Part shown: positions 2,774 to 20,807 of the stretch, piece after piece
Position numbering within the stretch: the first letter of the stretch is position 1
Layout: the number at the start of each line of letters is the position of its first letter
DNA from: Bacteroidales bacterium
GTDB lineage: Bacteria; Bacteroidota; Bacteroidia; Bacteroidales; TTA-H9
Reading direction: 5' to 3'
Assembly (NCBI GenBank): GCA_049969475.1
Contig: JBMFOU010000005.1
Coordinates: 2,034-66,033, forward strand
DNA: 64,000 bases
The notes under the pieces: generated by a model
Told to the model about the DNA's origin: nothing
The model's database searches: none
Seen by the model: the letters and a program-made list of their open reading frames with translations, nothing else
Position numbers and translations under genes: made by a program

Positions 2774-2823
2774 TAGAACCCAAAGCTTTTTACATAACTT
2801 TATTTCTTCAAAATTCATAAAAT

Positions 2824-3210
2824 ATGAAATCCAAAATTCTAGCCATAGACGACGAGCAGAGTATCAGATTATTACTTGAAAACTACCTTGGAAAAAACTA
2901 CGAGGTGGTTACTAAAAGTAATGGAGAAGAAGGTTTGATCTGGCTTGAAAAGAACATTCCCAACCTTATCATTTGCGACATTCAGATGCCTAAAATGGAT
3001 GGTTATGAGTTCATTGAAAAGGTGAGGGCCTCAGGCTTTCATAAACACACTCCCATCATCATGCTTTCAGGTGAAGAAAGCAGTGAAAGCAGGGTAAGAT
3101 GCTACCGGCTGGGAGCTCAGGACTTTTTGGTAAAACCTTTCAATGTACTTGAACTCGAGGAGCTTATCAAGAAGAACCTCAATCCTATACATTATGCCAT
3201 TGAATGGTAA
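2824..3210 (+). CDS. stand-alone response-regulator receiver (CheY-like)
   Basis: 128 aa, receiver domain only. D9-D10 acidic pair, acceptor D52 (IICDIQMP), S82 and K104 (LVKPF) are all present. Confidence 0.9.
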   Translation: MKSKILAIDDEQSIRLLLENYLGKNYEVVTKSNGEEGLIWLEKNIPNLIICDIQMPKMDGYEFIEKVRASGFHKHTPIIMLSGEESSESRVRCYRLGAQDFLVKPFNVLELEELIKKNLNPIHYAIEW

Positions 3211-3222
3211 AAAATACAGCCT

Positions 3223-4413
3223 ATGATACCCCTTAAAAAAGAACATTACACAATTCTTTATATAGGTGGCGATACGGGTATAAAGGAAGCTTTCGAGCGG
3301 GACCCCCGAATCAGTCATATTACGGTAGAAAATGGATTGGAAGCTTTGGACGCCTTGCAAAAACACAGCGAGATAGACGGAATAGTGTGTGAAATGTTCC
3401 TCCCGGGAGGCACTGGGTTGGAACTTTACGAATTCTTAAGCAAGTCTGAATTCGCCACTAAATTAAAACTTCCTTTTATCATTGTTGTACACGATTTTGA
3501 TCCCAATTTGTATAAAAAAGCCTTTTGGGCAGGGGTAGATGATTTTTATCTTGCCCCACTCAATCATGATAATCTTTTGTATCGACTTGATTTTATCAAA
3601 GAATACAAGGAGAAACATACCCAAAATCTGGGCCAGGAGGTGAAGCTGAAGCCCTACAAAATGGATTGGAAAAAACGGGCCTTCGATATTGTCTTTGCGA
3701 GCATTGCCCTGATCTTGGTCTCCCCTATTTTACTACTAGCAGCCTTGGCTATTTGGGTGGAGTCAGGGTTCAAAGGCAAAGTATATTACATCTCCAAAAG
3801 ATTTGGCAGATACGAAGTATTCGATTTCTATAAGTTGCGTACTATGTACCTTGATGCTGACAAAAGGTTAAAGGATCTCAAACACCTCAATCAATATGCT
3901 GACCTGATCGATGAGGACAAAGACGAGCCCTGTCCAAGATGTGCTCAATTACCAGCGGGGCAGTTTTGTTCGCAACCCCTCAACTATGGAAATTCTAAAA
4001 TATGTGAATACTGGTTCCTAGAAAAGAAAAAGAAGAAAAATCAGGCTGCATTCATAAAGATTAAAGACGATCCGCGCATTACCAAAGTTGGTAAAATACT
4101 CAGAAATACCAGTATTGATGAATTGCCCCAGCTTATCAATGTGTTAAAAGGCGATATGTCGATTGTGGGCAACCGTCCACTTCCCCTTTATGAAGCAAAC
4201 ATGTTGACTACTGATCAATATAGTAAACGTTTCGGTGCGCCCGCCGGAATTACCGGTCTCTGGCAAGTGGAGCTCAGAGGCAAAAAAGGGAAAATGTCGG
4301 AAGAAGAAAGAAAGATGCTCGACAACAACTATGCCGACAATCACTCTTTCTGGGGTGATATCAAACTCATTCTGAGAACCATCCCCGCACTTTTCCAGAA
4401 AGAAAACGTGTAA
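3223..4413 (+). CDS. degenerate receiver domain fused to a phosphoglycosyl transferase (bacterial sugar transferase family)
   Basis: 396 aa. Residues ~9-125 follow the receiver pattern, but E57 replaces the acceptor Asp (IVCEMFLPG) and Ala replaces the conserved Lys (YLAPL). Residues ~150-396 carry PGT hallmarks: a membrane helix (AFDIVFASIALILVSPILLLAALAIW), KLRTM, and DDPRITKVGKILRNTSIDELPQLINVLKGDMSIVGNRP. A Cys-bearing insert occupies residues ~222-278. Confidence 0.88.
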   Translation: MIPLKKEHYTILYIGGDTGIKEAFERDPRISHITVENGLEALDALQKHSEIDGIVCEMFLPGGTGLELYEFLSKSEFATKLKLPFIIVVHDFDPNLYKKAFWAGVDDFYLAPLNHDNLLYRLDFIKEYKEKHTQNLGQEVKLKPYKMDWKKRAFDIVFASIALILVSPILLLAALAIWVESGFKGKVYYISKRFGRYEVFDFYKLRTMYLDADKRLKDLKHLNQYADLIDEDKDEPCPRCAQLPAGQFCSQPLNYGNSKICEYWFLEKKKKKNQAAFIKIKDDPRITKVGKILRNTSIDELPQLINVLKGDMSIVGNRPLPLYEANMLTTDQYSKRFGAPAGITGLWQVELRGKKGKMSEEERKMLDNNYADNHSFWGDIKLILRTIPALFQKENV

Positions 4414-4414
4414 G

Positions 4415-5182
4415 ATGAACAAGATTTTTAGGATATGCCTTCTTTTCCTGGCCCTTGTGCCGGGCTTTAATTTATCAGGACAAAACAATGCGGGAGGGGG
4501 AGATTTTAGTTTCGACCCCATTATCGACGACATTGCCAAACATATCCCCCCGCTAGAAGCGCTTATAGATTCTGCCATCGCCAATTCTCCCTATCTGAAG
4601 TTCAGGGATGCGCAAATTGTGGTTAACCATTACAAATACATTATCGAAAAGAATCAGTTGCTTAGGGATATTGGTTTTAGCATAGAGGCCCGTTACGGAC
4701 GTTTCGACAATTGGTCTACCAACGAAGGAGCTGGAGGAATACCTGTATATGTTGGTAGCACCCGCGATGAGTGGAGATATGGAGCAGGTGCCTACATTAA
4801 AATTCCGTTGTTCGACATTACAAATCGTAAAACCACCATAAATTTGGCTAAAAAAGAAGTAGAGCAAGCCGTTAATCATCGCAACGAATTGATTCACGAA
4901 ATAAGAAAGGACGTTATCGTGCAATACAACGAACTGTTGATGCGACAACGCTTGATGAAAATAGCCAGTGATAATCAGATTACAGCCGAGATACAGTTGC
5001 GGATGGCAGAAAAGCAATTTCAGAATGGGCAACTACCCTTAGGCGAAATGGCCCGAATGATGGACATTATGGCACGGGCTAAAGCGGAATACGAACAGCA
5101 AAAAACTGCCTTTATTACTGCTTACAGTTTGCTTGAAATTACAACAGGTGTTAAATTTAACCTTTTAAATAAGCTTCAGTAA
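4415..5182 (+). CDS. half-length TolC-like (outer membrane efflux protein repeat) protein
   Basis: 255 aa. Signal peptide, then one copy of the OEP repeat (LEALIDSAIANSPYLKFRDAQI..., beta segment, then long helices to the C-terminus). About half the size of a normal TolC-family protomer. Confidence 0.7.
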   Translation: MNKIFRICLLFLALVPGFNLSGQNNAGGGDFSFDPIIDDIAKHIPPLEALIDSAIANSPYLKFRDAQIVVNHYKYIIEKNQLLRDIGFSIEARYGRFDNWSTNEGAGGIPVYVGSTRDEWRYGAGAYIKIPLFDITNRKTTINLAKKEVEQAVNHRNELIHEIRKDVIVQYNELLMRQRLMKIASDNQITAEIQLRMAEKQFQNGQLPLGEMARMMDIMARAKAEYEQQKTAFITAYSLLEITTGVKFNLLNKLQ

Positions 5183-5185
5183 GGT

Positions 5186-7858
5186 ATGAATCTGGTCAGA
5201 ATACTCAAGCTTTTTCAACGCAATCTGCCACTGCTCATTGGGGTGCCGCTAGTGCTGGTGGCAATTGCAAAATATCTGACCAGAAATCCCACCTTAAAGT
5301 ATGAATCAGAAACCACTATATACACAGGTCTGGCTTCAGGATATACTTTAGAGCAAAGTAAAGGCTTCAACTTATTTGCTACAAACAATGCTTTTGATAA
5401 TCTCATCAATATCATAAAAAGCCGTGAGGTAGCTTCTGAAACAGGGATTCGCCTGTTTACCATGTATCTCATGATGGATAAGCCCGATAGCAGGATTTTA
5501 AAAGTAAACTGGGAAAACCTTCAAAAAAGAACTCCGGCGCACATCAAGGCTCTTTTGATAAAAAAAGGGCAGATGGAACTTTCAGCCGGAACATTCGGAA
5601 ATCAATTCAGTGACACAATTTTTCTTGTAAACAACGATTTCGTTGTTGATGATAAATTATTTCATTTAGTCAAGCCTGATGAAACTATTTTCAGTATAGC
5701 CAAGCAATACAATGTATCGGTAAGCGAATTACTGAATATCAACAATTTAACAAGTTACTACTTAAATCCTGGAAGCAAAATCATTGTTAAAGATGTAAGC
5801 GATGGGAGCCCGGAAGAAAAGATGCAACTTTTCGATAGCGCCAATGTTCAGAAAAAAAGAGACCTCAACAAGGATTTATATGAAAAGAATGTGCAAAAGC
5901 TGATGCAATATGCATATGCTAATGACACAAACTATCTCTATGGTCTTTTGAATTCGGGCAATCCTTATTTCGGCATCAAAGCCATACAGTCAGTAACTGT
6001 AAAAAGAGTTCAGAGCAGTGATCTTATAAATATCAAATATACTTCGTTCGATCCCGGAATTTGTCAGCAGACTCTGATAATTCTCACCGAAGTATTTATT
6101 CGAAAATTTAAATCGGTTAATGAGAACCAATCAGATGCTGTTGTAAGATACTTTATTAACGAGGTTAATAAAGCTGCTGTTCGTTTGCGCCAAGCAGAAG
6201 ATCGTTTATTGGAGTTTAACAAGACGAACAATATTATCAATTACTATGAACAAAGTAAGGCAGTAGCCAACATGAAGGAAGACCTTGATCAAAAATACAG
6301 TGAATCGAGGATGAATTATGAGGCAGCGGCTGCTGTTCTTCAGAAACTTGAAGAAAAGCTGGGCGTTCAGGGGCAAATTCAGCTGAAAACCGATCAAATT
6401 GTCAAAACGCGCAATCGTCTATCAGAAATTACTTCTAATATCACATTGACAGAGGTTTATAACGATCCAGATCCCAAAAACCGGGCAAAACTTGAAGAAT
6501 TGAAAAGCGAAGCTGCACGGCTTAAAAAACAGTTGGAGGATTATGTTTCGCAACTTTATACTTACACCAACACTATCGATGGCCTCCCCTTGAATGACTT
6601 ACTTCAGCAATGGCTCGTAAATGTTATTAAATACGAGGAGAGTAAGGCCACCATGGAGGTTTTAGCTCAACGCATACAAGAATTTTACGAGTATTACAAA
6701 ACGTTTGCTCCTTTAGGTGCTACACAGAAACGCATTGAGCGCGAGATTAATGTTGCAGAGCAAGAATACCTCTCACTCCTGCACAGCCTGAACCTTTCCA
6801 AACTCAAACAACAAGACATAGAGCTTTCCTCTAACATCAAAGCTGTAGACCCGCCATATTATCCACTAAAACCCTTAAAAGGCAAAGAAGGCATTTTGGT
6901 AATTGTGGCGGGTTTGTTCGGTTTCATTTTCGTGGCCTTCCTCATAATAGCTCTTGAATACCTTGACAACACTATCCGAACGGCTGACCGACTCGAAGAA
7001 CTTTCAAAGCTCAGAATTGCCGGTGTCTTTCCCCGCATTATCAACCGCTATGCTGCATACAATTTACCTTTTATTACCAACCGCCTTATTGAACTTACTG
7101 TACACAATATACGCCTTAACGTAAGACAAAACCAAAAACACGTAGGGCCTGCGCTAGTCATTATTTTCAGCTCCCTAAAAAAAGAAGGCAAAACATTCAT
7201 GGGAGCACGGCTTGCAGAAAAGTTCAGGGAATTTGGTGAACAAACCGCATTTTTAACTTTCGTTACCTCCAATAACTTAAATGATAATGAATGGCTTACT
7301 CAGCCAGGTTTTTCTGGTGAGCCTGTTGAAGACAATTCATTACAGGACGACCTCAGAAAGAAAAGCACCAAGGGTAAAGCCAACTTGCGTTCACAAAAGA
7401 AAAAAACTGTTCGCAGGACAACTGCTGAAAAGTTGATTCCCATGCCCATTGCTCATGATGACAATTTCAGATATCTGGTAGATAAGAATTTTACCGAAGT
7501 TTCATCGCTCTCTGAACTGAATTATTTGGAAAGGAGACCTATATTTAGCGACTACAAATTCATTTTGCTCGAATTGCCGGGAACCATTTACAACCCCTAC
7601 CCCATCGATTTAGTTGCACAAGCTGACTCATCTTTAATGATCACACGAAGCAACCGATCGTGGAAAAAAGCTGACACATTAGCTTTATTCACTATGGTCA
7701 AGATTTTCAAAGAGAAACCATTGGCTTTCTTAAATGGGGTAGAAATAGAAGAAATAGAAAACATCTTAGGAGACCTTCCACGTCAAAGAAGTCGCCTTAG
7801 AAGAATATTTAAAAAATTGATTACATTGCAATTAAAAGATAGGACCGCTATAAAATAA
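5186..7858 (+). CDS. Wzc/GumC-like polysaccharide co-polymerase with an embedded LysM domain and a degenerate P-loop domain
   Basis: 890 aa. Wzz-type N-terminal TM, a LysM motif at residues 159-203 (FHLVKPDETIFSIAKQYNVSVSELLNINNLTSYYLNPGSKIIVKD, nt 5660-5794), and a long coiled coil. A Pro-rich PPYYPLKPLKGKE motif precedes a second TM. The C-terminal domain has a Walker-A-like SSLKKEGKT but no Tyr-rich tail. Confidence 0.8.
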   Translation: MNLVRILKLFQRNLPLLIGVPLVLVAIAKYLTRNPTLKYESETTIYTGLASGYTLEQSKGFNLFATNNAFDNLINIIKSREVASETGIRLFTMYLMMDKPDSRILKVNWENLQKRTPAHIKALLIKKGQMELSAGTFGNQFSDTIFLVNNDFVVDDKLFHLVKPDETIFSIAKQYNVSVSELLNINNLTSYYLNPGSKIIVKDVSDGSPEEKMQLFDSANVQKKRDLNKDLYEKNVQKLMQYAYANDTNYLYGLLNSGNPYFGIKAIQSVTVKRVQSSDLINIKYTSFDPGICQQTLIILTEVFIRKFKSVNENQSDAVVRYFINEVNKAAVRLRQAEDRLLEFNKTNNIINYYEQSKAVANMKEDLDQKYSESRMNYEAAAAVLQKLEEKLGVQGQIQLKTDQIVKTRNRLSEITSNITLTEVYNDPDPKNRAKLEELKSEAARLKKQLEDYVSQLYTYTNTIDGLPLNDLLQQWLVNVIKYEESKATMEVLAQRIQEFYEYYKTFAPLGATQKRIEREINVAEQEYLSLLHSLNLSKLKQQDIELSSNIKAVDPPYYPLKPLKGKEGILVIVAGLFGFIFVAFLIIALEYLDNTIRTADRLEELSKLRIAGVFPRIINRYAAYNLPFITNRLIELTVHNIRLNVRQNQKHVGPALVIIFSSLKKEGKTFMGARLAEKFREFGEQTAFLTFVTSNNLNDNEWLTQPGFSGEPVEDNSLQDDLRKKSTKGKANLRSQKKKTVRRTTAEKLIPMPIAHDDNFRYLVDKNFTEVSSLSELNYLERRPIFSDYKFILLELPGTIYNPYPIDLVAQADSSLMITRSNRSWKKADTLALFTMVKIFKEKPLAFLNGVEIEEIENILGDLPRQRSRLRRIFKKLITLQLKDRTAIK

Positions 7859-7872
7859 AGAATTACTGACTT

Positions 7873-9243
7873 ATGATTAAAGTCATCCTCAATAAAACTA
7901 TCTACAACAAAAACTTTCTTTCATTGGCAGGGAATGCCGTGTCGGCAGTTTTTGGTCTAATCGTATTTATGCTTCTGGCACGTACTTTCTCTGCCGATAT
8001 TTTTGGGGAATGGGTAATATATCTTTCTACTGCGACTTTTCTTGAAATGTTCAGGTTTGGGCTCACCCGAACCGGCCTCATCCGTTTTCTTTCTGGAGCC
8101 ACCGGAGAAGAACGTGCGCGACTGAAAGGCACCAATTACGTCGTTGGATTATCTATCACGGCATTAATTTTCATTGTATTATACATCTCCCTACTCATTT
8201 TCCACAAGCCCATCATGGCTTCGCCTTACCGGCTTTTTTTCCTGTGGTATCCCTTGCTGGCCCTAGTCAATTTACCCTTTAACAACGCGCTGAGTGTCTT
8301 GCAAGCAGAAGAAAAATTTCTACAGATACTGATTATTCGTGCGCTCAATGTGGCTTCTTTTGCGTTGCTTCTGGCTCTCAACTATTTCTTGCAATGGAAC
8401 TTGAGTCTTCAACATCTCATATGGTGGCATTTATTTCTCAATTTGTCTACTTCAATGTATGTCATCATAAAAAAATGGGATGGCCTGTTTGATTTGAAAT
8501 ATTTTAACAGGGATACCTTAAAAACCCTTCTAAGGTTCGGAAAATATACAACAGTAACGCTAATTGGCAGTAATTTGCTTCGCAGTGCTGATACCTTTAT
8601 TCTTAGCATTAGTCCCTTGGGAAGCGCCGCTGTGGCCACCTATTCCATCCCGCTCAAACTCATGGAGATGCTTCAGATTCCTTTGAGAAGCTTTGCTGCA
8701 ACGGCTTTTCCCAAACTTTCAAAGGCAAGTATCAATGAGGAATGGGGAAAATTTAAGTTCTTTTTTTATCACTACACAGGGGTGGTTACCTTTCTGTTTC
8801 TTCCGGTAATCATTTTAGGTTTCTTTTTTGCCAAATATTTTGTATGGCTGCTTGGAGGTGCAGAATATTTGAAGCCTTTCCCTGCCACCGGCGAAAGCAC
8901 CGTATTTTTATTTCAGGTATTTGTGCTTTATGGGTTTCTGCTTCCCCTCGATCGTATGACCGGTGTAGGTTTGGATGCCATCAACAAACCTGAAAAGAAC
9001 TTTTACAAAATCATTGCCATGGTAACGGCCAATGTCATCGGCGACCTTGTAGCTGTTTTTATTTTCAAAAAACTACTTTACGTTGCCTATGCCACTTGGC
9101 TATTTACATTTATAGGGGTTATTTTTGGTTATTCATATCTTAACAGGGAAGTTCCCCTCCATTTTATTAAAATCTTCTCTATAGGATGGAAGTCACTCAT
9201 ACAATATTTTTTCAGGAAACAAACCGAGTATGAACTAAAATGA
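7873..9243 (+). CDS. oligosaccharide flippase (Wzx-like, MOP superfamily)
   Basis: 456 aa and highly hydrophobic with about 12-14 TM segments. Its position and pattern are typical of polysaccharide biosynthesis flippases. Confidence 0.78.
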   Translation: MIKVILNKTIYNKNFLSLAGNAVSAVFGLIVFMLLARTFSADIFGEWVIYLSTATFLEMFRFGLTRTGLIRFLSGATGEERARLKGTNYVVGLSITALIFIVLYISLLIFHKPIMASPYRLFFLWYPLLALVNLPFNNALSVLQAEEKFLQILIIRALNVASFALLLALNYFLQWNLSLQHLIWWHLFLNLSTSMYVIIKKWDGLFDLKYFNRDTLKTLLRFGKYTTVTLIGSNLLRSADTFILSISPLGSAAVATYSIPLKLMEMLQIPLRSFAATAFPKLSKASINEEWGKFKFFFYHYTGVVTFLFLPVIILGFFFAKYFVWLLGGAEYLKPFPATGESTVFLFQVFVLYGFLLPLDRMTGVGLDAINKPEKNFYKIIAMVTANVIGDLVAVFIFKKLLYVAYATWLFTFIGVIFGYSYLNREVPLHFIKIFSIGWKSLIQYFFRKQTEYELK

Positions 9244-10763: not shown

Positions 10764-10815
10764 AGAGATTAGTTTTTTACAAGATTTATTGCTAATTTAG
10801 CTCAAATTTATATTT

Positions 10816-11742
10816 ATGGAAAGTCAATCATCATTCCCGTTGGTTTCCATCATATCTATTAATTATGACCATCCTGAGGTAACCTGCCAGATGCTTGATT
10901 CTCTGCGTAAGATTACCTATCCCAATATTGAAGTTATTGTAGTTGACAATGCATCGCCTAATGATGATCCTTCCATAATTCCTGCGCAATTTCCTGAGGT
11001 GAAATTCATACAATTGGATAAAAATCTTGGATTTGCCGGGGGCAATAACGTAGCCATCCGGCAAGCCAAAGGAAAATACATCCTGCTTCTTAATAACGAC
11101 ACAGAGGTTACACCAGATTTTTTGGAACCCTTAGTGTCTAAATTGGAAAGTAACCCAGAGATTGGCGTGGTAAGCCCTAAAATTAAATTTTATCATACGC
11201 CTGATACACTGCAATTTACTATTATCACTCCTATCAATAAACTCACCGGGCGTAGCACGGGATTGGGATTTGGTGTAAAAGACGAAGGCCAATGGGAGTT
11301 TGATGCAGAAACTGCATACGCACACGGTGCGGCGATGATGATACCGAGGCATGTCATCGAAAAAGTAGGCTTGATGGCCGAGATCTACTTTCTCTATTAC
11401 GAAGAACTCGACTGGTGCTATCGCATAAGGCAAGCTGGATATAAAATATTTTATGTGCATAACTCTCTGATTTATCATAAAGAGTCTATTTCAACAGGTA
11501 GGATGAGCCCTACCAAGATTTATTGGATGAATAGGGCCCGCCTGCTCTACATTCGTCGCAACGTCAGGCAACCCATTCTTACCCTCTCTCTTCTGTATCA
11601 ATTCGTAATAGCTATTCCCAAAAATGCCCTAATGTATTTGCTGAAAGGTCGTATAGATTTATTTAACGCCTATCATAAAGCCGTGATGTGGCATTTTAAA
11701 AATTGGAACAACCCTCAAATATTTGATAATCCCAAACTATGA
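10816..11742 (+). CDS. family 2 glycosyltransferase
   Basis: 308 aa. VSIISINYD..., VVDNAS, NLGFAGGNN, LLLNNDT (DxD region), and YYEELDWCYR typical of rhamnosyl-type GT2 enzymes. Confidence 0.9.
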   Translation: MESQSSFPLVSIISINYDHPEVTCQMLDSLRKITYPNIEVIVVDNASPNDDPSIIPAQFPEVKFIQLDKNLGFAGGNNVAIRQAKGKYILLLNNDTEVTPDFLEPLVSKLESNPEIGVVSPKIKFYHTPDTLQFTIITPINKLTGRSTGLGFGVKDEGQWEFDAETAYAHGAAMMIPRHVIEKVGLMAEIYFLYYEELDWCYRIRQAGYKIFYVHNSLIYHKESISTGRMSPTKIYWMNRARLLYIRRNVRQPILTLSLLYQFVIAIPKNALMYLLKGRIDLFNAYHKAVMWHFKNWNNPQIFDNPKL

Positions 11743-12509
11743 GAAAATTGCATTTTAACAACGTTACCGATTACAGGCAAGCAGAAGACCTCAAACGGCT
11801 GGGGTATATTCTGGATCAGATAGCAACGCTAGGCCGCAAGCCTCTAAACATTCTGGAAATTGGTTGTGGCAACGGAAATATATGCTATCAGTTAGCTTAC
11901 GAAGGTCATAAAGTAAAAGGTATCGATCATGACGAGGATTCTATTGCCTATGGGAAAAGTCATTTTCAACACGATAATCTGGTATTCGAGGTCAAAGCCG
12001 CTGAAGATGTGGTGAATGGAAATGCCTATGAGGTAATTATTTGCAGCGAAGTGCTTGAGCATCTTTACCATCCAGAAGAGGTTATGAAAACCATTCCTCA
12101 CTTATTGGCAAACGAGGGTGTAGTTATTATAACAACTCCCAATGGAGTAGGCCCCAGAGAGCTATTCATTACCCGGCCAGTGCAATGGATTAAACATAAC
12201 AGCCGACTGCTCTATGCTCTATTAAAATTCGTCAAACGCCTGATGGGATACACTGGGGCTACAATTCAATCGAGCAGTTACTCGCTAGAACACGTTCAAT
12301 TTTTCAAACTGAAGGATCTCAAAAAAATGGCTCAAGCCAGCGGTTTACGTATCGTTGACATGAAACCCGCTTGTTTTCTCGAAAAAGTATTTCCTTTTAG
12401 TCTCATAACCCGCTTTTTCGTCTCCTTGCAGTGGTTCGACTGTAGGATTGCAAACGCTTTGCCTATTACGATAAGTAGCGGGTTTATGCTCACTTTAAAA
12501 AAGAGTTGA
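11739..12509 (+). CDS. class I SAM-dependent methyltransferase
   Basis: 256 aa. Motif I ILEIGCGNGN and post-I/II motifs (ICSEVLEHL). ATGA overlap with the upstream GT2 gene. Confidence 0.85.
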   Translation: MRKLHFNNVTDYRQAEDLKRLGYILDQIATLGRKPLNILEIGCGNGNICYQLAYEGHKVKGIDHDEDSIAYGKSHFQHDNLVFEVKAAEDVVNGNAYEVIICSEVLEHLYHPEEVMKTIPHLLANEGVVIITTPNGVGPRELFITRPVQWIKHNSRLLYALLKFVKRLMGYTGATIQSSSYSLEHVQFFKLKDLKKMAQASGLRIVDMKPACFLEKVFPFSLITRFFVSLQWFDCRIANALPITISSGFMLTLKKS

Positions 12510-12521
12510 AAACCCTCCCAA

Positions 12522-13445
12522 ATGGGGAAAAAAAACTGGCCACTTGTCTCAATTGTAACCGTCAATTACAATCAGACCGACACCACGCTCGAGCTGATTG
12601 AATCCCTGATTAAAATTACCTATCCCAACATCGAATTGCTGGTGGTTGACAACGATTCACCGGAAGCCGATGCTATGCGTATCCGACAAAAGTACCCCAG
12701 GGTTATTTTAGTGCAAAGCCCCATAAATTATGGTTTTGCTGCGGGTAACAACCTGGGCATTATGCGGGCCCGGGGAAAGTATGTAATGATTTTGAACAAT
12801 GATGTAATAGTAACACCAGGTTTTCTTGAACCGCTGGTTGAACTATGTGAATCAAATGCACACATCGGAGCCATCAGCCCCAAAATTCGATTTTACTACG
12901 AACCACAGGTAATTCAATATGCCGGTTTCACTTCCATACATCCCATTACAATGAGAAATAAGGCTTTGGGGTGGAAGGAAAAAGACCGCGGACAATACGA
13001 CTCTGAGGGTACGACTGGATTTTGCCATGGTGCGGCCATGCTGGTTCCCATGGATGTGATTCGCAAGGTAGGCATGATGTCGTATATTTATTTTCTGTAT
13101 TATGAAGAAGCCGATTGGTGCGAGCGCATTAAAAGGGCTGGTTATGAGCTTTGGTACACACACCGTTCCATGGTTTACCATAAAGAGAGTATATCGACGG
13201 GTAAAGATAGCCCTCTAAAAGCTTATTATCTTACCAGAAACCGTATTATATTTTTAAGAAGAAATGCAAAGGGAAAAAATCTATGGTTAGGCGTTCTATA
13301 CCAGGTGTTGGTTGCTGTTCCTCGCAATGCATTGAAATACTTGATAAAAGGCAATTTCAACTATGTTTCAGCTTTTGTAAGGGGTGTTATGTGGCATTTT
13401 TTTCACCTAAAAGACCCCTCCATTTTTGAAAATCCAACTTTATAA
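12522..13445 (+). CDS. family 2 glycosyltransferase (paralog of 10816-11742)
   Basis: 307 aa, colinear with the 10816 product and roughly half the residues identical by eye (VSIVTVNYN, VVDNDS, NYGFAAGNN, ILNNDV, YYEEADWCER). Confidence 0.9.
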   Translation: MGKKNWPLVSIVTVNYNQTDTTLELIESLIKITYPNIELLVVDNDSPEADAMRIRQKYPRVILVQSPINYGFAAGNNLGIMRARGKYVMILNNDVIVTPGFLEPLVELCESNAHIGAISPKIRFYYEPQVIQYAGFTSIHPITMRNKALGWKEKDRGQYDSEGTTGFCHGAAMLVPMDVIRKVGMMSYIYFLYYEEADWCERIKRAGYELWYTHRSMVYHKESISTGKDSPLKAYYLTRNRIIFLRRNAKGKNLWLGVLYQVLVAVPRNALKYLIKGNFNYVSAFVRGVMWHFFHLKDPSIFENPTL

Positions 13446-13492
13446 TTTGTAATTTTAAAGGAAAAACCAGAATCCCTCCAAATTTTTCTTCC

Positions 13493-14698
13493 ATGGATGT
13501 ACTTACATTAATAATCAATATCTTGCAAACCGCCTTGTGGATTTACCTGGCCGTCATCGGGCTTTATTTGTTGCTATTTGCTCTATCCAGTCTTCTGCCT
13601 CACAAAAATGACTATCACGGCGATGATACACCCAAAAGAATAGCAGTGCTTATTCCTGGCTATAAAGAAGACAATATCATTGTAGAGATAGCACGACTGG
13701 CTTTGCAACAGAATTATCCCAAGGACAAGTACGACGTGGTAATCATTGCCGACTCGTTTAAACCAGAAACACTTGAGGCTTTGCGCAAACTGCCGATTAA
13801 AGTTATTGAGGTAAGTTTTGAAATTAGTACCAAGGCCAAGGCCCTTACAGAAGCAGTCAAGCAATTGCCCGACACCTATGACCTTTGCATAATACTGGAT
13901 GCAGATAATGTGATGGAGCCTGAATTTTTACAAAAAATTAGTAAGGCGTGGAAGCCTGGTATGCTTGCCATACAAGGACATCGGATTGCCAAAAATATGA
14001 ACACTCCGTTTGCTATTCTTGATGCTATCAGCGAAGAAATTAACAACCAAGTATTTCGCAAAGGCCATCGTCGGTTAGGCCTTTCGGCTGCTATTATTGG
14101 CAGCGGGGTGGCGTTCGACTATAAATATTTCAGGGATTTAATTCCCCAAGTTACGGCCGTGGGCGGCTTCGACAAAGAAATAGAGCTGAAAATGCTGCGC
14201 GACAGGCAAGTAATTTATTACCTTCACGATGCCTATGTGTATGATGAAAAGGTACAGAAGCCAGAAACCTTCCAGAATCAGCGACGCAGATGGTTGTCGG
14301 CTCAGCTTCATTACCTGAGAAAATACTTTCTACACTCTCTGGGTTACCTAATTTTTAAAGGGAATATAGAATATTTTAACAAAGCTTTTCAATTTCTCCA
14401 ATTACCACGAGTACTCTTATTAGGGATAGTGGTTACTTTATTCCCTTTAATTATTGTTCTCAATTTCGCAATCAACCAGCCTTTGTGGGTCAATCGTTGG
14501 ATTACTCTGGCCTTGATTATTATCTTTGCTATTTGGATTAGTGTTCCACGCAAATTTTACAACCGCAATCTATGGATTGCCCTCACCCACCTTCCCAAGG
14601 GTATTTTCATGATGTTCCTCAGTCTCATGAAGACTAAAGGAGCCAACAAGCGATTTATTCACACCGTCCACGAAACCACACATACCGAAATCCATTAA
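13493..14698 (+). CDS. membrane-embedded GT2, synthase-like (Q-x-x-R-W motif)
   Basis: 401 aa. N-terminal TM, GT-A core (VLIPGYKED, ILDADN), QNQRRRW motif, then about 4 C-terminal TM helices. Confidence 0.85.
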   Translation: MDVLTLIINILQTALWIYLAVIGLYLLLFALSSLLPHKNDYHGDDTPKRIAVLIPGYKEDNIIVEIARLALQQNYPKDKYDVVIIADSFKPETLEALRKLPIKVIEVSFEISTKAKALTEAVKQLPDTYDLCIILDADNVMEPEFLQKISKAWKPGMLAIQGHRIAKNMNTPFAILDAISEEINNQVFRKGHRRLGLSAAIIGSGVAFDYKYFRDLIPQVTAVGGFDKEIELKMLRDRQVIYYLHDAYVYDEKVQKPETFQNQRRRWLSAQLHYLRKYFLHSLGYLIFKGNIEYFNKAFQFLQLPRVLLLGIVVTLFPLIIVLNFAINQPLWVNRWITLALIIIFAIWISVPRKFYNRNLWIALTHLPKGIFMMFLSLMKTKGANKRFIHTVHETTHTEIH

Positions 14699-14712
14699 AA
14701 AATTCAACGACT

Positions 14713-16560
14713 ATGATCAGATTCATTGGATGCCTCGATCCCAAATGCAATATTTCCAACTGCGTGGGTCAACTTCCTATCATCATGACTTCTCATGGCC
14801 CAATAGCTCTCGACCAGGGACTACATTTCTGTGATTGCGATGAATACAACATCGTATGTTTTGGTGAGATATACAATTTAGATGACTTGCGAAAGCAATT
14901 CAACATTGCATCTGATCATCGCTGCAAAGTCATTCACGATCTTTTTGTAATTAAGGGAGATGATTGGATAAAACTTATCGACGGAGAATTTACCGTATTG
15001 ATGTACAATCAAGAAGAGATGTACATTTATCGTGACCGACATGGAGCCGGCCCTCAGGTGTATTATACCGGTACCCACTTTGCCAGTCATCCCGTTTTGC
15101 TGCGCAAAATCTCAGGATTTGAGGCCAAACCAAACCCTAATACTATTGCAACTTTTTTAGGCATCGGCTACATACCAGCACCTGAAACGGCCCTGGAAGG
15201 TGTAAAAAAAATACCTGCCGGTCACCTACTTTATCAGAAAAAAAATGAACAAAATCTCCGGCGCTTATATAGGTTCGAAGAGTTTTTATCTTCGACAGGC
15301 ACTTATAAAGGCACAATTGAAGAGGGAACAGAGCAATACAGGCAGCTGCATCAGCAGGTGATAAACGATAGGCTTGGGCAGGTTCAGAAAGTAGGTTTGC
15401 TTTTGAGCGGTGGCTACGACTCTGGTGGAAATATTTATTCGCTGCGACAAATATACTCCGGGCCAGCCGAAGCCATTTCCATTGGATTTAAAGACAATCC
15501 ATGGACAGAAATTCCCCTGGCTAAACTCATGGCCGATGAATTTAAAACTACCTTTCACAGCTATGAAATTGACGGCAGTGAAATAAAAGAACTACCATTG
15601 GCAGTCAAGCAATTAGGTGATCCTTTCCAGGAAGGTGGACTGATGGTGAACTTTATAGCCATGAAAACTGCCGCAGCTCTTGGATTCGACATCATATTGG
15701 GAGGAGATGGAAACGATCAGCACTTTGGTACTTCAGCCAAAGAATTGGGCCTCAATTGGCGAATCCGGAAAATGGGCTTACAATGGGCTCAGCAACTCTT
15801 CAGCCGCTTGGGAAAATGGAGCTTGTTCGACACGAGTCCTACCCTTTTCAGACTGCGTTTCCACAACGATAAGATTTTACACATCATCGAAAGCGATTGT
15901 TTTGGATTTCCGCTTCATCAGGCTCGTAAAATCATACCTTCCACTCAGTTAGCAGGTTATGAATATTCCAAAGTCTTTCCCAAAGATTTCGAAAGTTTCG
16001 ACCATTTTTATTTTGCAAGAAACTACCTAATTGATATAGAACAAGTTGTTAATGAGGTAATCCTTTTTAAAGCTAGCCGAATGGCTGAACTTTTTGGAAA
16101 CAAAATAACATTCCCCTACATGGCCACGCCTGTCTTCAATTTCTTAAAAACCCTTCCTAGATCTATGAAATGCAAAGGAACACCCGAAGAAATTTCGAAA
16201 GGGAAAGGTGTAGCCAAGTTTCTCCACAAAAACTATCTTAAGCCCGTGTTACCTGCTGAAATTACCTCACGGAAAAAGCAAGGTGGTTTTGCCCCTCTAC
16301 CCTTGTTTTTCAAAGATCCAACCCAGCGACAGCTCATCCAGGCTGTAATTCGCAAATCGGGCTTTTACCGGCAATTTGCGGATAAGCGTCTTATTGAAGC
16401 CTTTTTCAGAGAATATGAAGCCAAAGCACTTAACGAGCATGCCTGGTTCTGGTATCGTCAGTTGAGTGCCTTTAAATACTTCAACCTCTTGGTAATTGCC
16501 CTTTGGTGGGACATTCATATTGATGGAATGGAGGGAAATTTACTGACAGATTTCACCTAA
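14713..16560 (+). CDS. asparagine synthetase B-like amidotransferase/adenylating enzyme without the N-terminal Cys nucleophile
   Basis: 615 aa. PP-loop LLLSGGYDSGG and an AsnB-type C-terminal domain. The N-terminus is MIRFIGC rather than MCG. Confidence 0.8.
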   Translation: MIRFIGCLDPKCNISNCVGQLPIIMTSHGPIALDQGLHFCDCDEYNIVCFGEIYNLDDLRKQFNIASDHRCKVIHDLFVIKGDDWIKLIDGEFTVLMYNQEEMYIYRDRHGAGPQVYYTGTHFASHPVLLRKISGFEAKPNPNTIATFLGIGYIPAPETALEGVKKIPAGHLLYQKKNEQNLRRLYRFEEFLSSTGTYKGTIEEGTEQYRQLHQQVINDRLGQVQKVGLLLSGGYDSGGNIYSLRQIYSGPAEAISIGFKDNPWTEIPLAKLMADEFKTTFHSYEIDGSEIKELPLAVKQLGDPFQEGGLMVNFIAMKTAAALGFDIILGGDGNDQHFGTSAKELGLNWRIRKMGLQWAQQLFSRLGKWSLFDTSPTLFRLRFHNDKILHIIESDCFGFPLHQARKIIPSTQLAGYEYSKVFPKDFESFDHFYFARNYLIDIEQVVNEVILFKASRMAELFGNKITFPYMATPVFNFLKTLPRSMKCKGTPEEISKGKGVAKFLHKNYLKPVLPAEITSRKKQGGFAPLPLFFKDPTQRQLIQAVIRKSGFYRQFADKRLIEAFFREYEAKALNEHAWFWYRQLSAFKYFNLLVIALWWDIHIDGMEGNLLTDFT

Positions 16561-16572
16561 ACAGACACATGT

Positions 16573-17721
16573 ATGCGCATTGGTATAGAAGGGCAACGAC
16601 TCTTTCGTAAGAAGAAACACGGAATGGATATGGTTGCGCTGGAGTTGATACACAACCTCCAGAAAATAGACCGAGAGAATGAATATTTCATTTATGTGGC
16701 TCCTGATGAAGACACGGGTTGCCTCCAGGATACCTCCAACTTCCACATTCGGGTGCTCAAAGGGGGCTTTTATCCGAAATGGGAACAAATTGCGCTTCCC
16801 AAAGCCGCACGGGCTGACGGTGTGGAACTCCTGCATTGCACCAGCAACACTGCACCATTAAGGACCTCCATCCCACTGGTGGTTACAGTGCACGACATCA
16901 TTTACATGGAAAAATCTATCTTTCAGATACTTACGGGGAGAGGAACTCCTTACCAAAAATTTGGTAATGTCTATCGCCGCTTTGTAGTACCGCGCATCAT
17001 CCAGAAAAGTCAAATCATCATTACAGTTTCTCAATTCGAAAAGAAACGCATGGCTGAGTTTTTCGGGATGGACGACCACAAACTCCGGGCTGTTTACAAC
17101 GGTGTGAGTTCTCATTTCAAACCGGTTATCGATGAAAAGGTTCGCCAGCAGGCACGGGAAAAATATCATTTGCCCGAGAAATTCTTTTTCCACTTAGGTA
17201 ATACTGACCCAAAGAAAAATACTTTAGGGGTCATTAAGGCTTACGCAAGGTTTAGAGAGAGAACCGGCCTCGACATTCCGCTGGTCATGCTAGATTTCGA
17301 CCATGATGAGTTGCTGGCTATGGCGAAAGCCAGCGGTGATGTCCATATCATTGATCATATTCATCTTACGGGTTATGTGCCCAATAAGGAACTTCCTGCT
17401 ATTTATTCCATGTGCGAAATATTCCTCTATCCTTCACTGCGGGAAAGTTTTGGCATACCTATTTTAGAAGCCATGGCCTGCGGGGTACCTGTAATCACTT
17501 CAAACACCAGCAGTATGCCAGAGGTTTCTGGGGGAGCCGCGTTACTCGTAGACCCTTTCAAGCCTGATACCATTACCGAAGCAATGATTAATCTTCTCAA
17601 CAATCCAGTCTTACGTAACGACCTCATTCAAAGAGGATTTACTCAGGCTGCCCGGTTTACCTGGGAAGCTATGGCACAGCAAGTGCTAACCATTTACAAG
17701 GAAGTCGCTTCAATAAACTAA
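16573..17721 (+). CDS. GT4 (group 1) glycosyltransferase
   Basis: 382 aa. C-terminal E-x7-E region: RESFGIPILEAMACGVPVITSNTSSMPEV. Confidence 0.9.
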   Translation: MRIGIEGQRLFRKKKHGMDMVALELIHNLQKIDRENEYFIYVAPDEDTGCLQDTSNFHIRVLKGGFYPKWEQIALPKAARADGVELLHCTSNTAPLRTSIPLVVTVHDIIYMEKSIFQILTGRGTPYQKFGNVYRRFVVPRIIQKSQIIITVSQFEKKRMAEFFGMDDHKLRAVYNGVSSHFKPVIDEKVRQQAREKYHLPEKFFFHLGNTDPKKNTLGVIKAYARFRERTGLDIPLVMLDFDHDELLAMAKASGDVHIIDHIHLTGYVPNKELPAIYSMCEIFLYPSLRESFGIPILEAMACGVPVITSNTSSMPEVSGGAALLVDPFKPDTITEAMINLLNNPVLRNDLIQRGFTQAARFTWEAMAQQVLTIYKEVASIN

Positions 17722-17739
17722 AATATTCCTTATTCATCT

Positions 17740-18960
17740 ATGGCTAAGATTGAGGGAAAAAACATTATAGTAGTTGGCATTCAACCCTGGGACATCAAAA
17801 TAGGCAGCAATTGCAAAAATATAGCCCGGGAGTTTGCCCGGCACAACCGTGTGCTGTATGTAAACTTTCCACTCGACAGAGCTACGCTTTTTAAAGAAAG
17901 ACAAACAGAAAAGATTCAGAAACGCCTGGCCGCCCGTCGGGGCAAAATCCCCAGATTGGAGAAGGAGGAAGAAAACTTATGGGTTTATTATCCACCCACC
18001 ATCATAGAGTCGCTTAACTGGTTACCCTGGCCCTGGCTTTTCGACATACTCAATAAGCGCAATAGTCGACTTTTCGCTAAAGACATTAAAGCAGCCCTTA
18101 AAGAACTGGAATTTAATAACTATATAATATTCAATGATTCTTCAATGTTTTTGGGGCTTTATTTGAAGGAATATCTGCAGCCCAAGTTTTACATTTACTA
18201 CATGCGCGACTACCTGGTAAAAAATCCCTATTGGCGTAAACATGGTCTGAGGAACGAACCCCTGCTTATTGCCAAAGCCGATTTGGTAGTTTGCAATTCT
18301 ACGCTTTACGCAGAATATGGTGCCCAATATAACAAACATAGCTACATGGTGGGGCAGGGCTGTGACACAACTCTTTTTAACGATGATATTCAACCTATTG
18401 AAATTGCTGAAGAGCTCACAAAAATTCCTCGGCCCATCATAGGGTATGTGGGGGCTTTGGCTTCCAGACGGCTCGATATAGCCCTGATAGAGTATATAGC
18501 ACGGCAGCGCCCGCAGTGGAGCATCGTTTTGGTTGGTCCTGAGGATGACAATTTTAAAAACTCGGCTCTTCATAACCTTCCCAATGTGTACTTTTTGGGT
18601 CCCAAGCCGGAGCATATTCTCCCTACCTATATCAAAGGATTTGATGTTGCCATGAATCCTCAGCTGGTGAACGATGCTACCATGGGCAACTATCCCCGAA
18701 AAATCGATGAATACCTAGCCATGGGAAAACCCACCATCGCATCAGCTACCAAAGCCATGGAATATTTCGAAGGTTATGCTTACATTGCCCATTCTCACGA
18801 AGAATATATTACACTCATTGAAAAAGCGCTTAAGGAAGATTCTCCAGAGTTGCAGGCTCGTCGGAAAAGCTATGGTCGGAGTCATACATGGGAAAACAAT
18901 GTAGCGCTTATATATCATTACATCGAGCTCGTTTGCAGGGAAAAAGGTATTGAATTATAA
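17740..18960 (+). CDS. glycosyltransferase (GT-B fold, TuaH-like)
   Basis: 406 aa. IGYVGAL...LVGP...LGPKP...NYPRKIDEYLAMGKPTIAS pattern of GT-B enzymes found in polysaccharide loci. Confidence 0.7.
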   Translation: MAKIEGKNIIVVGIQPWDIKIGSNCKNIAREFARHNRVLYVNFPLDRATLFKERQTEKIQKRLAARRGKIPRLEKEEENLWVYYPPTIIESLNWLPWPWLFDILNKRNSRLFAKDIKAALKELEFNNYIIFNDSSMFLGLYLKEYLQPKFYIYYMRDYLVKNPYWRKHGLRNEPLLIAKADLVVCNSTLYAEYGAQYNKHSYMVGQGCDTTLFNDDIQPIEIAEELTKIPRPIIGYVGALASRRLDIALIEYIARQRPQWSIVLVGPEDDNFKNSALHNLPNVYFLGPKPEHILPTYIKGFDVAMNPQLVNDATMGNYPRKIDEYLAMGKPTIASATKAMEYFEGYAYIAHSHEEYITLIEKALKEDSPELQARRKSYGRSHTWENNVALIYHYIELVCREKGIEL

Positions 18961-18972
18961 AAAATTTTGGTT

Positions 18973-19599
18973 ATGAGTTTAAAACAACGTTTAAAATCAG
19001 ACCCCAGGATCAAAAAATTCGTTCTTTGGCTCATTACCCCGGCCAAACGCCCACGTCCCCGTTGGTGGGTCAGAATTTTCGTTAATCCATTTTTTCATAA
19101 AAGAGGAAAGGGTTCACTTATAAGGCGCTATACCCGGATGGATGTATTTCCCTGGAATAGATTTGAACTGGGCCGCGATAGTACCATTGAGAGCTTTTGT
19201 GTAGTAAACAACGGGGCTGGTGACGTAATCATTGGCGACGAATGTCGTGTAGGCATTGGTACGGTTATTATTGGTCCTGTGAAAATGGGCCATGGAAGTG
19301 GAACGGGTCAGCATGTATTCATTGGGGGATTTAACCATGGTTATAAGGATGGAACCCAAAATTCCAAGTATCAACCTCTGGATATTAAACCCGTGGTTAT
19401 TGAAGACGAAGCTCATATCGGGGCTAATTCCGTTGTTCTTGCAGGTGTAACCATAGGAAAACGCACCCAGATAGGAGCCGGAAGCGTGGTTACTAAAAGC
19501 ATTCCGTCCTTTTGCATTGCAGCTGGAAACCCATGCCGGGTTATCAAAAAATATAACTTTGAAACGGGCGAGTGGGAAAGAGTTGATAAAACTAACTAA
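18973..19599 (+). CDS. hexapeptide-repeat (left-handed beta-helix) acyl/acetyltransferase
   Basis: The ORF-track start at 18967 is TTG, so I used the ATG at 18973. Hexapeptide repeats are visible (IGDECRVGIGTVIIGPV, IGANSVVLAGVTIGKRTQIGAGSVV). Confidence 0.85.
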   Translation: MSLKQRLKSDPRIKKFVLWLITPAKRPRPRWWVRIFVNPFFHKRGKGSLIRRYTRMDVFPWNRFELGRDSTIESFCVVNNGAGDVIIGDECRVGIGTVIIGPVKMGHGSGTGQHVFIGGFNHGYKDGTQNSKYQPLDIKPVVIEDEAHIGANSVVLAGVTIGKRTQIGAGSVVTKSIPSFCIAAGNPCRVIKKYNFETGEWERVDKTN

Positions 19600-19613
19600 A
19601 AAAAATTCTGACC

Positions 19614-20807
19614 ATGCTTACACTGAAAGTGATCTTCTGGATATTATTGTTTATAGTTTTTTATGCTTACCTTGGTTATGGAATATTGCTTTTCATTCTG
19701 GTGAGGCTAAAGCGCATTTTTAAACGCAAACCCCACCCGAGCGACACGCATTACGAGCCAGAGGTAACCCTCTTGGTGGCTGCATATAACGAGCGCGAAT
19801 ATGTAGATGCCAAGGTGCAAAATTCACTCTCGCTCGACTATCCCAAAGAGAAGATTAAAATGGTTTGGGTAACCGACGGCTCGGATGATGGAACTCCTGA
19901 ACTTCTAAAAAAATATGAAAATCAGGGAGTAAGAGTTTATCACAAACCTGAGCGGGGTGGCAAAATCGGGGCCATGAACCGGGGTATGCAATTCGTAGAT
20001 ACTCCCATAGTGATATTTTCTGATGCCAACACTATGCTTGGACCGGAAAGTATTCGCCGCATAGTCAATCTATTTGCTGATCCAAAAGTGGGTTGTGTTT
20101 CGGGAGAAAAAAGGATTTTTCAAAAAGAAGCCCAGTCGGCAGCTGCTACCGAAGGAATTTACTGGAAATATGAGTCGAAACTCAAGAAATGGGATGCAGA
20201 GCTATACTCGGTAGTAGGGGCAGCCGGCGAACTATTTGCTATTCGCACCGATCTTTACCAAGAAGTTGAGCAGGACACCCTACTCGACGATTTTATCATT
20301 TCCCTGCGTATAGCCATGAATGGATATACCATTCAATACGACCCGGAAGCATATGCTATTGAGGCCCCTTCGGCCAATGTAAAAGAAGAACTAAAGCGAA
20401 AAATTCGCATTGCAGCCGGCGGCATTCAAAGTATAGTACGCCTGAAGCCTTTGCTTAATCCTTTTAAATATGGCCTACTTTCGTTCCAATACATTTCGCA
20501 TCGCGTCCTTCGCTGGACCCTTGCACCACTCTCTTTACCCCTGATTTTTATCCTGAACCTCATCGTTGCCATCCATGCAGGTTTTGCATCCAACGATCTC
20601 TATACTTGGCTCTTTTTAGCTCAGGTGCTTTTTTATGCTATGGCGCTATTAGGTTGGTTGCTCGAAAGTAAAAGCCTCAGAATTAAAATTCTATTTGTTC
20701 CTTATTACTTCCTTATTATGAATTATGCTGTTTTTCTTGGTTTTGCCAGATACCTGAAAAAACAGCAGTCGGTCAATTGGGAACGCGCTCAAAGGGCGAA
20801 AGCCTAA
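19614..20807 (+). CDS. membrane-embedded GT2, second synthase-like enzyme
   Basis: 397 aa. N-terminal TM, GT-A core (LLVAAYNE, FSDANT), a degenerate QxxRW position (RKIRIAAGG), and C-terminal TM helices. Confidence 0.85.
   Translation: MLTLKVIFWILLFIVFYAYLGYGILLFILVRLKRIFKRKPHPSDTHYEPEVTLLVAAYNEREYVDAKVQNSLSLDYPKEKIKMVWVTDGSDDGTPELLKKYENQGVRVYHKPERGGKIGAMNRGMQFVDTPIVIFSDANTMLGPESIRRIVNLFADPKVGCVSGEKRIFQKEAQSAAATEGIYWKYESKLKKWDAELYSVVGAAGELFAIRTDLYQEVEQDTLLDDFIISLRIAMNGYTIQYDPEAYAIEAPSANVKEELKRKIRIAAGGIQSIVRLKPLLNPFKYGLLSFQYISHRVLRWTLAPLSLPLIFILNLIVAIHAGFASNDLYTWLFLAQVLFYAMALLGWLLESKSLRIKILFVPYYFLIMNYAVFLGFARYLKKQQSVNWERAQRAKA

Follow-up and report, generated by a model that had tools for sequence, protein, structure and literature searches.

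A single-repeat TolC-family protein paired with a Wzc-like co-polymerase in Bacteroidota: a candidate export module for Wzx/Wzy-made polysaccharide

In this study, we have analysed a polysaccharide locus on a 64,000-nucleotide stretch of DNA from a Bacteroidales bacterium (assembly GCA_049969475.1, contig JBMFOU010000005.1; hereafter, the window, to whose numbering the nucleotide positions refer unless a contig is named). Two adjacent genes of the locus encode a 255-residue protein made of a single TolC repeat, which we call half-TolC, and an 890-residue Wzc-like polysaccharide co-polymerase (PCP), and the two proteins form a conserved module. We lean towards the view that they are the envelope-spanning parts of a dedicated apparatus for the export of a polysaccharide made by the Wzx/Wzy pathway, in which six or eight copies of half-TolC would build a duct docked on the PCP. 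In the current account of capsule and exopolysaccharide (EPS) export, the outer membrane is crossed by means of a Wza-type OPX protein, alone or together with a β-barrel partner. If the view proposed here is true, a TolC-derived duct standing on a co-polymerase would be an additional solution to export, linking two much-studied envelope machines, and a TolC made of half-size subunits would bear on the evolution of the TolC fold and on the duct width that it can attain.

Results

Half-TolC is a single TolC repeat

The 255-residue protein has a single match to the Pfam OEP family (PF02321), which extends over residues 47–245 and covers the profile from end to end (positions 1–187 of 187), with an E-value of 4e-17 and 63 bits against a cut-off of 22. 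Its AlphaFold2 (AF2) model, calculated with 27 homologues and reaching a predicted local distance difference test (pLDDT) score of 82, displays two short helices (residues 47–84), a β-hairpin (86–103 and 111–128), a helix of 66 residues (138–203) and a return helix (209–244), a predicted layout that is that of one TolC repeat, half a TolC protomer. A motif at the helix-turn tip, FxNG (residues 202–205), is conserved. In a Foldseek comparison of this model with the PDB, all 38 significant matches are TolC-family channels, including OprM, CmeC, TolC, CusC, VceC, MtrE and OprN; the alignments span 198–233 columns of chains of 402–493 residues, about half of each target, with query-normalised TM-scores of 0.51–0.61. 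TolC itself is a homotrimer with a 12-stranded barrel, and the two repeats of each protomer are structurally near-equivalent. While the criterion for TolC is two tandem repeats in about 430–500 residues, the half-TolC protomer is devoid of the second OEP repeat. The reading of this protein as a single TolC/OEP repeat, made in an initial annotation of the window from its sequence, is thus borne out by both the full-profile match and the fold.

The short length is a property of the family. A word-based search returned 27 relatives of 237–261 residues, with identities of 34–96%, and a profile search of 1.84 billion representatives gave 181 clusters at E < 1e-30, a number that rises to 684 at E < 1e-10. 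Among the best 150 profile matches each sequence has one matched stretch (with the exception of one fragment, which has two), and the lengths are about 216–302 residues barring 13 fragments of less than 200; relatives down to ~23% identity are all roughly 230–290 residues long. The possibility that half-TolC is a truncated pseudogene, which the initial annotation had named as a point to be checked, was rejected, since the frames are open and the length is conserved across hundreds of clusters. In the source genome, about seven genes encode full-length TolC proteins with two repeats in open frames of 445–508 residues, and half-TolC is the sole single-repeat gene.

One of these neighbourhoods drew attention as a second possible link between TolC and polysaccharide. 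On contig C25 (positions 11796–19877; locus L046), genes for a Wzx/MurJ-like flippase and a DegT aminotransferase adjoin an efflux operon of the order TetR, TolC, membrane-fusion protein (MFP) and RND pump. The link was rejected, as the TolC belongs to an ordinary operon of this type, and its proximity to the flippase gene appears coincidental.

The co-polymerase has the Wzc architecture and a degenerate kinase-like domain

The AF2 model of the PCP (pLDDT 79.5) shows a first transmembrane (TM) helix (TM1, residues 14–31), a membrane-proximal α/β region, a series of periplasmic helices (290–347, 353–392, 398–424, 430–457 and 469–548, the longest being of 58–80 residues), a second TM helix (TM2, 568–593) and an α/β domain (611–880). 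The best Foldseek matches are full-length Wzc structures of E. coli (9r68, 9r62 and 7nhr; E about 1e-17) and the kinase domains of Wzc, Etk, BceF and CapAB. At the sequence level, the Wzz (PF02706, residues 2–86) and GNVR (PF13807, residues 516–587) matches are weak, with 20.7 and 22.6 bits against gathering thresholds of 25.5 and 27.7, respectively, and lie at the expected places; the best NCBIfam match is the chain-length determinant TIGR03007.

The motifs of the cytoplasmic domain were analysed in an alignment of about 120 PCP homologues, to which the canonical Wzc encoded elsewhere in the source genome was added. The GK[ST] of Walker A is kept, with G668 invariant and K669 found in at least 90% of the sequences, and it aligns with the Walker A of the canonical Wzc. 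Walker A' is lost: the segment is TAFLTFVTS in this protein and L-N-F-S in the consensus of the family, compared with VLVGFDLRKP in the canonical Wzc, and the Asp positions are gone. In Walker B, the Asp of the canonical IVIDTPP is replaced by Glu796 (FILLELPG), which is found in at least 90% of the family. The last 40 residues contain no tyrosine, and the homologues carry 0–3 scattered tyrosines with no cluster; instead, the family tail is a basic segment (LGDLPKKRSxxRR...), ending here in a basic helix (870–880). The domain displays the fold of bacterial tyrosine kinases (BY-kinases), with Walker A' and the tyrosine tail missing, the Lys of Walker A and an acidic residue in Walker B kept, and a fusion to the PCP. 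Between Walker A and Walker B there is also a disordered insert rich in Lys and Arg (710–744), the length of which varies among homologues and which is missing in the short form of Algoriphagus (678 residues).

The SSLKKEGKT motif, the Glu in FILLELPG and the lack of a C-terminal tyrosine cluster had been described correctly in the initial annotation. Its description of the PCP as kinase-dead stands in part: tyrosine autophosphorylation is likely lost, judging from these motifs, but the invariance of G668 and the conservation of K669 and E796 in at least 90% of the family argue that nucleotide binding has been kept, as the sequence of the P-loop domain suggests.

The PCP also carries a LysM domain (PF01476) in its periplasmic part, as had been noticed initially, which is confirmed by a Pfam match at residues 160–202 (E = 6e-12, 45.7 bits against a cut-off of 20.9). 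Its PDB matches are the LysM repeats in entries 4uz2 and 4xcm, and the segments at its sides (132–142 and 217–224) have pLDDT values below 50. Of the 120 closest PCP homologues, about half have no LysM domain, and homologues without it (787, 796 and 841 residues) still have half-TolC directly upstream. The LysM domain as a core part of the system was therefore rejected; it is an accessory insert. The PCP had been called peptidoglycan-anchored on the strength of a domain that is indeed present here, but the core of the system is not so anchored. Even in the present protein its reach to the peptidoglycan is uncertain, since the model places the insert close to the membrane, between short flexible linkers; the peptidoglycan may lie within its range, or its ligand may instead be a glycan containing N-acetylglucosamine (GlcNAc).

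Half-TolC and the co-polymerase are strictly paired

An evenly drawn sample of 401 Bacteroidales genomes from 237 genera was searched with profiles for half-TolC and for the PCP subfamily. Matches to half-TolC were found in 88 genomes (22%), belonging to 60 of the 237 genera, and to the PCP subfamily in 89; both occur in 87 genomes, half-TolC alone in one, the PCP alone in two and neither in 311 (Fisher p about 1e-85). The three mismatches correspond to a genome that is 73% complete, a PCP at a contig edge and genome G374, in which a divergent half-TolC does stand directly upstream of the PCP. Half-TolC is single-copy in 86 of its 88 carriers, and the two matches seen in each of the other two are halves of one gene split by the assembly.

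The pairing extends to gene position. In every locus and genome whose coordinates were compared, the two genes are on one strand, with half-TolC immediately 5' of the PCP. A set of 26 loci, 23 found by a half-TolC peptide pattern and three by exact protein match, keeps the order uvrB, response regulator, phosphoglycosyl transferase (PGT) with receiver-like domain, half-TolC, PCP, Wzx, Wzy and GT2 as far as the contigs extend, exceptions in Wzx apart: this gene is syntenic in most related loci, and tblastn gave no Wzx match in four loci of the set, L011–L014, nor in the related locus L045. Carriers with the same gene order were also found in further orders and classes of Bacteroidota in a phylum-wide sample of 381 genomes. 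The two proteins are thus a conserved module, and their strict pairing throughout the phylum strengthens the idea of dedicated export. As regards the co-occurrence of a short OEP protein with LysM-containing PCPs, for which the initial annotation had asked, half-TolC does pair with the PCP across the phylum, the LysM domain being optional in the latter. The module is common in Bacteroidales and other Bacteroidota, and among its carriers is a cultured species, Algoriphagus kandeliae (locus L042), with close homologues in A. limi, A. litoralis, A. marinus and A. namhaensis; cultured Algoriphagus may bring the idea within reach of experiment.

The locus

The polysaccharide locus is a tightly packed operon on the plus strand, in which uvrB is the first gene and a β-helix gene the last, as seen in the list of open reading frames (ORFs) and in the junction sequences (Table 1). 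These confirm the ORFs and the spacing reported earlier: the PGT gene ends in TAA and 1 nucleotide separates it from the ATG of the 255-residue ORF, which itself ends in TAA 3 nucleotides before the ATG of the 890-residue PCP ORF. A scan of positions 2500–11000 for promoters and terminators gave the same counts as shuffled sequence.

Table 1. Features of the polysaccharide locus and its surroundings in the window
Feature	Position	Strand	Evidence or remark
uvrB	632-2659	+	First gene in locus order
Single-domain response regulator, 128 aa, opens the conserved module	2824..3210	+	Pfam Response_reg E 7e-28
Priming PGT, 396 aa, receiver-like N-terminal domain	3223..4413	+	Bac_transf E 6e-54; TIGR03025 E 4e-63
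Half-TolC, 255 aa, signal peptide and one OEP repeat	4415..5182	+	Pfam OEP, AF2, Foldseek
Wzc-like PCP, 890 aa, LysM insert, degenerate tyrosine-kinase-like domain	5186..7858	+	AF2, Foldseek
LysM domain, PCP residues 160-202, between disordered linkers	5663..5791	+	Pfam LysM
PCP cytoplasmic P-loop domain, residues 611-880	7016..7825	+	AF2 model, family alignment
Walker A SSLKKEGKT, PCP residues 662-670	7169-7195	+	Family alignment
Disordered Lys/Arg-rich insert, PCP residues 710-744	7313-7417		
Walker B Glu796 (FILLELPG) of PCP	7571-7573	+	Family alignment
Wzx-type flippase, 456 aa	7873..9243	+	Polysacc_synt E 3e-14
Wzy-like polymerase, 507 aa	9240..10763	+	Wzy_C E 2e-10; related loci syntenic
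Glycan-building genes: GT2 x4, methyltransferase, AsnB-like amidotransferase, GT4 x2, hexapeptide acyltransferase	10816..20807	+	Pfam
AsnB-like glutamine amidotransferase (within the preceding set)	14713-16560		
T9SS-sorted β-helix protein, 552 aa, locus end	20848..22506	+	Beta_helix, Por_Secre_tail, choice_anch_Q, TIGR04183
ArsR-type regulator	22728-23084		
Low-molecular-weight-phosphatase-type ArsC	23405-23833		
Acr3/SBF-type carrier	23889-24935		

The response regulator gene is found 5' of the PGT gene in all related loci. In the PGT itself, the N-terminal Response_reg match falls marginally short of the Pfam cut-off, with 30.1 bits against 30.2. Among the glycan-building genes, GT2c, GT4a and GT4b are kept even in the loci of other orders and classes, and the Wzy-like protein may, by its family, have an O-antigen-ligase role. 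The protein at the end of the locus has a right-handed β-helix fold, a choice-of-anchor-Q segment and a C-terminal sorting domain of the type IX secretion system (T9SS), and a 42%-identical copy is present in the related locus L015; from its domains, it may be a secreted glycan-processing enzyme, a candidate glycanase, lyase or epimerase with the polymer as its substrate.

Some further observations concern the glycan and the surroundings of the locus. The gene for the AsnB-like glutamine amidotransferase is also kept in the distant loci L030 and L032, which points to a repeat unit that contains a uronamide or another amidated sugar. Together with the conserved GT2 and GT4 genes, it suggests that the repeat unit is conserved and may be amidated. 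Just 3' of the locus there is an unrelated arsenic-resistance set, whose position directly downstream marks the end of the polysaccharide locus. On the other side, the whole module lies immediately 3' of uvrB across many genera, in several of which rhomboid and endonuclease genes are found farther 5' (loci L002–L032), and such stability of place is unusual for a surface-glycan locus.

Wza is encoded outside the window

Among the 20 products encoded at positions 2824–26108, Pfam searches found no match to Poly_export or SLBB at E-values up to 0.1, and none to a known polysaccharide β-barrel exporter. The export module without Wza that had been proposed is therefore upheld for the locus, its vicinity and the window, but not for the genome, as a six-frame search of its 3.1 Mb revealed one Poly_export gene on another contig (C1:132231–132524). 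The corresponding Wza is short, a 301-residue ORF that has a Poly_export domain and a single SLBB domain and ends in a hydrophobic segment, YTLLFSTITTTLLILNYF, and it is directly followed by a canonical Wzc of 835 residues, the tail of which is a run of about 20 YG repeats. The pair stands alone between a pyrophosphatase gene and cysD/cysN, outside the glycan loci. Most related genomes, too, have a single short Wza that is remote from the module: Wza is present in 16 of the 18 genomes behind the examined loci and, in the four complete chromosomes, lies about 1.9–3.9 Mb from the module. As the source genome contains four PGT genes and five Wzx-like genes and only one Wza-Wzc pair, this distant pair has other plausible clients.

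Discussion

From the computed gene order, spacing, domains, folds, motif conservation, family size and co-occurrence, we infer an oligomeric state for half-TolC, its docking, the passage of the polymer and roles for the LysM and P-loop domains. After secretion by the Sec pathway, half-TolC would form a homo-oligomer inserted into the outer membrane, each copy giving two β-strands and one pair of long helices. Having one repeat rather than two, it would not be a trimer of the usual kind; because the two repeats of TolC are near-equivalent and half-TolC supplies two strands, six copies would produce the 12-strand, 12-helix duct of TolC. Eight copies would give rise to a wider duct of 16 strands, with the eight-fold symmetry that is that of Wzc and with one helix-turn tip for each PCP subunit. 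The periplasmic helix-turn-helix tips of the duct would dock on top of the helical domain of the oligomeric PCP, as TolC does on membrane-fusion adaptors. In this regard, the 66-residue helix of the half-TolC model is about as long as the tunnel helices of TolC, roughly 100 Å by estimate, and the modelled PCP helices of 58–80 residues would reach roughly 90–120 Å, lengths that are compatible with a meeting of the two proteins across the periplasm. The chain that Wzy polymerises at the inner membrane would then pass through a continuous channel. The cytoplasmic domain of the PCP, which probably binds nucleotide and would lack a cycle of tyrosine autophosphorylation, might serve as a phosphorylation-independent assembly scaffold or switch, and the LysM domain, where present, would tether the complex to the peptidoglycan or bind a GlcNAc-containing glycan.

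Taken one step further, these proteins would represent an OPX-independent outer-membrane route for Wzx/Wzy products, with a single-repeat TolC as a six- or eight-fold duct docked 1:1 on the helical crown of a PCP whose function would be independent of tyrosine phosphorylation. A single-repeat form is the presumed ancestor of two-repeat TolC, and half-TolC would then be a living example of it. We advance this broader proposal tentatively, as it falls just short of what we would call probable.

Several observations weigh against the export role outlined above. Half-TolC scores far under the NCBIfam cut-offs for TolC and NodT (26.3 bits against 225.15 for TIGR01844, and 20.5 bits against 210.05 for TIGR01845), and a search of PDB chains with its sequence gave no meaningful match, the fold comparison alone being informative. 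Its predicted oligomeric state is a geometric argument built on models. The family assigned to the Wzy-like protein, PF04932, also covers O-antigen ligases, so that the product could, from the sequence, be a cell-bound glycan and not a secreted polymer. Finally, a Wza-Wzc pair is encoded elsewhere in the source genome (C1:131973–135417; L005:6974–10418), and 71 of 77 high-quality carriers of the module (92%), as well as all 57 of their genera, have a Wza. Carriers might be expected to lack Wza more often if the module replaced it, but they show no depletion relative to non-carriers (92% versus 89%, p = 0.53). For this reason, a route free of OPX proteins, as in the initial claim of an export route unlike the Wza-Wzc paradigm, is tentative. 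The six high-quality carriers with no Poly_export match were set aside as evidence for an OPX-free route, as they are mostly fragmented assemblies (one is rated 100% complete) and each of their genera has a Wza-bearing member. The initial interpretation as a whole is thus partly supported: its sequence-level claims all hold, and its functional side is argued from sequence and structural models.

The prevalence of Wza in the carriers and the single Wza-Wzc pair of this genome would fit a distant Wza that acts in trans as the real outer-membrane exporter, as in cases of one Wza shared by several loci. Half-TolC would then be an accessory, for instance a gate, an anchor in the outer membrane or a factor for chain release that cooperates with the PCP. 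The hydrophobic C-terminal segment of that Wza might in addition span the outer membrane. The comparison of carriers and non-carriers neither supports nor excludes such a trans-acting Wza; the presence of Wza is not associated with the module, and the carriers without any Poly_export match, among them the one rated complete, would have to do without it. The distant Wza is, moreover, paired with a canonical Wzc of its own, bearing the (YG)n tail, and further loci are candidate clients for it. The space in which a Wza ring docks on a PCP would be taken up by a periplasmic tunnel of the TolC type, and an accessory role would not readily explain the strict 1:1 adjacency of the two genes across the phylum. 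On these grounds, we regard export through the distant Wza as unlikely.

The breadth of PF04932, which includes ligases and polymerases, leads to a different possibility, namely a cell-bound glycan, O-antigen-like or ligated by the Wzy_C protein, with the PCP solely as chain-length regulator and half-TolC in a role other than polymer export, such as small-molecule export or structural bridging of the envelope. The chain-length determinant TIGR03007 as best NCBIfam match of the PCP would agree with this, as would the retention of the locus beside uvrB across many genera, in the manner of a housekeeping cluster. The PCP, however, has the full Wzc-type architecture and a cytoplasmic P-loop domain, which are typical of capsule and EPS systems and not of Wzz, and the locus has no efflux pump or membrane-fusion protein to feed a TolC-like duct, whereas the full-length TolC on contig C25 is found in a classic TetR-TolC-MFP-RND operon; a cell-bound product handled in this way seems to us quite improbable. 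Less probable by far is that half-TolC builds no channel of its own and co-assembles with, or caps, one of the full-length TolC proteins. There are about seven of these in the genome and the near-equivalence of the two TolC repeats is established, but half-TolC is linked to the PCP and not to TolC, MFP or pump genes, it is single-copy in carriers, and a mixed barrel, 2:1 or similar, would be without precedent. The preferred reading, a half-TolC duct on the PCP, is the one that we compare below with known systems.

Comparison with known systems

In full-text searching, the coverage of which leaves out most subscription journals, we found no description of a single-repeat TolC or of a TolC-family protein paired with a PCP. 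In the case of the group 1 capsule of E. coli, exported by Wza-Wzc (PCP-2a with a Class 1 OPX), the locus is likewise Wzx/Wzy-dependent, the gene of the outer-membrane partner adjoins that of the PCP, and Wzc shares with the present PCP the pair of TM helices, the long periplasmic domain built of helices and the BY-kinase-like domain in the cytoplasm. The differences lie in the partner, which is here a TolC-family half-protomer and not a Poly_export/SLBB protein as Wza, and in the PCP, which unlike Wzc has no Walker A' or tyrosine cluster, a Glu in Walker B and a LysM insert.

With the TolC/OMF family (AcrAB-TolC, HlyBD-TolC; TCDB 1.B.17), half-TolC shares the OEP signature, the fold of β-hairpin and long helices and the tip motif, as well as the presumed logic of an outer-membrane duct meeting a periplasmic helical adaptor. 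It departs from this family, the members of which have a length of 472±30 residues (PMC4827864), in having one repeat and 255 residues and, as neighbours in every checked locus, a PGT and a PCP instead of an MFP and a pump. A TolC-family outer-membrane protein has also been implicated in the production or export of a polysaccharide in Sinorhizobium meliloti, where BgsA/BgsB-TolC requires full-length TolC for a mixed-linkage β-glucan (PMC13438883); that system, however, combines the housekeeping full-length TolC of the cell with an MFP-like partner and a synthase, is synthase-dependent instead of Wzx/Wzy-dependent and has no PCP.

The EPS pathway of Myxococcus xanthus (EpsZ/EpsW, EpsV/EcpK) combines a Class 3 OPX with a β-barrel (PMC9603273, PMC9601211, PMC12004946, PMC12802240), and composite translocons of OPX and β-barrel have been described (PMC9603273, PMC9601211). 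As in the present locus, it is a Wzx/Wzy pathway in which the outer-membrane step departs from Wza alone, and a single-domain response regulator adjoins the PGT (EpsW/EpsZ; PMC12802240). Its PCP-2 works without tyrosine phosphorylation, and both EcpK and the present PCP end in a basic helix devoid of tyrosines. By contrast, our locus has no OPX, and its candidate pore resembles TolC and not PgaA; and whereas EcpK is a separate protein without Walker motifs, the pseudokinase-like domain is here part of the PCP chain and retains the Lys of Walker A. Among PCP-2 systems, those described as independent of phosphorylation and equipped with a tyrosine pseudokinase comprise EpsV/EcpK and HfsA/HfsB (PMC12004946). 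The PCP described here resembles them (EcpK, HfsB) in its BY-kinase fold without Walker A' or tyrosine tail and in its basic terminal helix, and differs from them by the fusion and by the conserved Lys and Glu. All together, the parts belong to two known superfamilies, OMF (TolC) and PCP-2 (Wzc), from which half-TolC departs by its one repeat in place of two, and the PCP by three of the criteria that define a BY-kinase.

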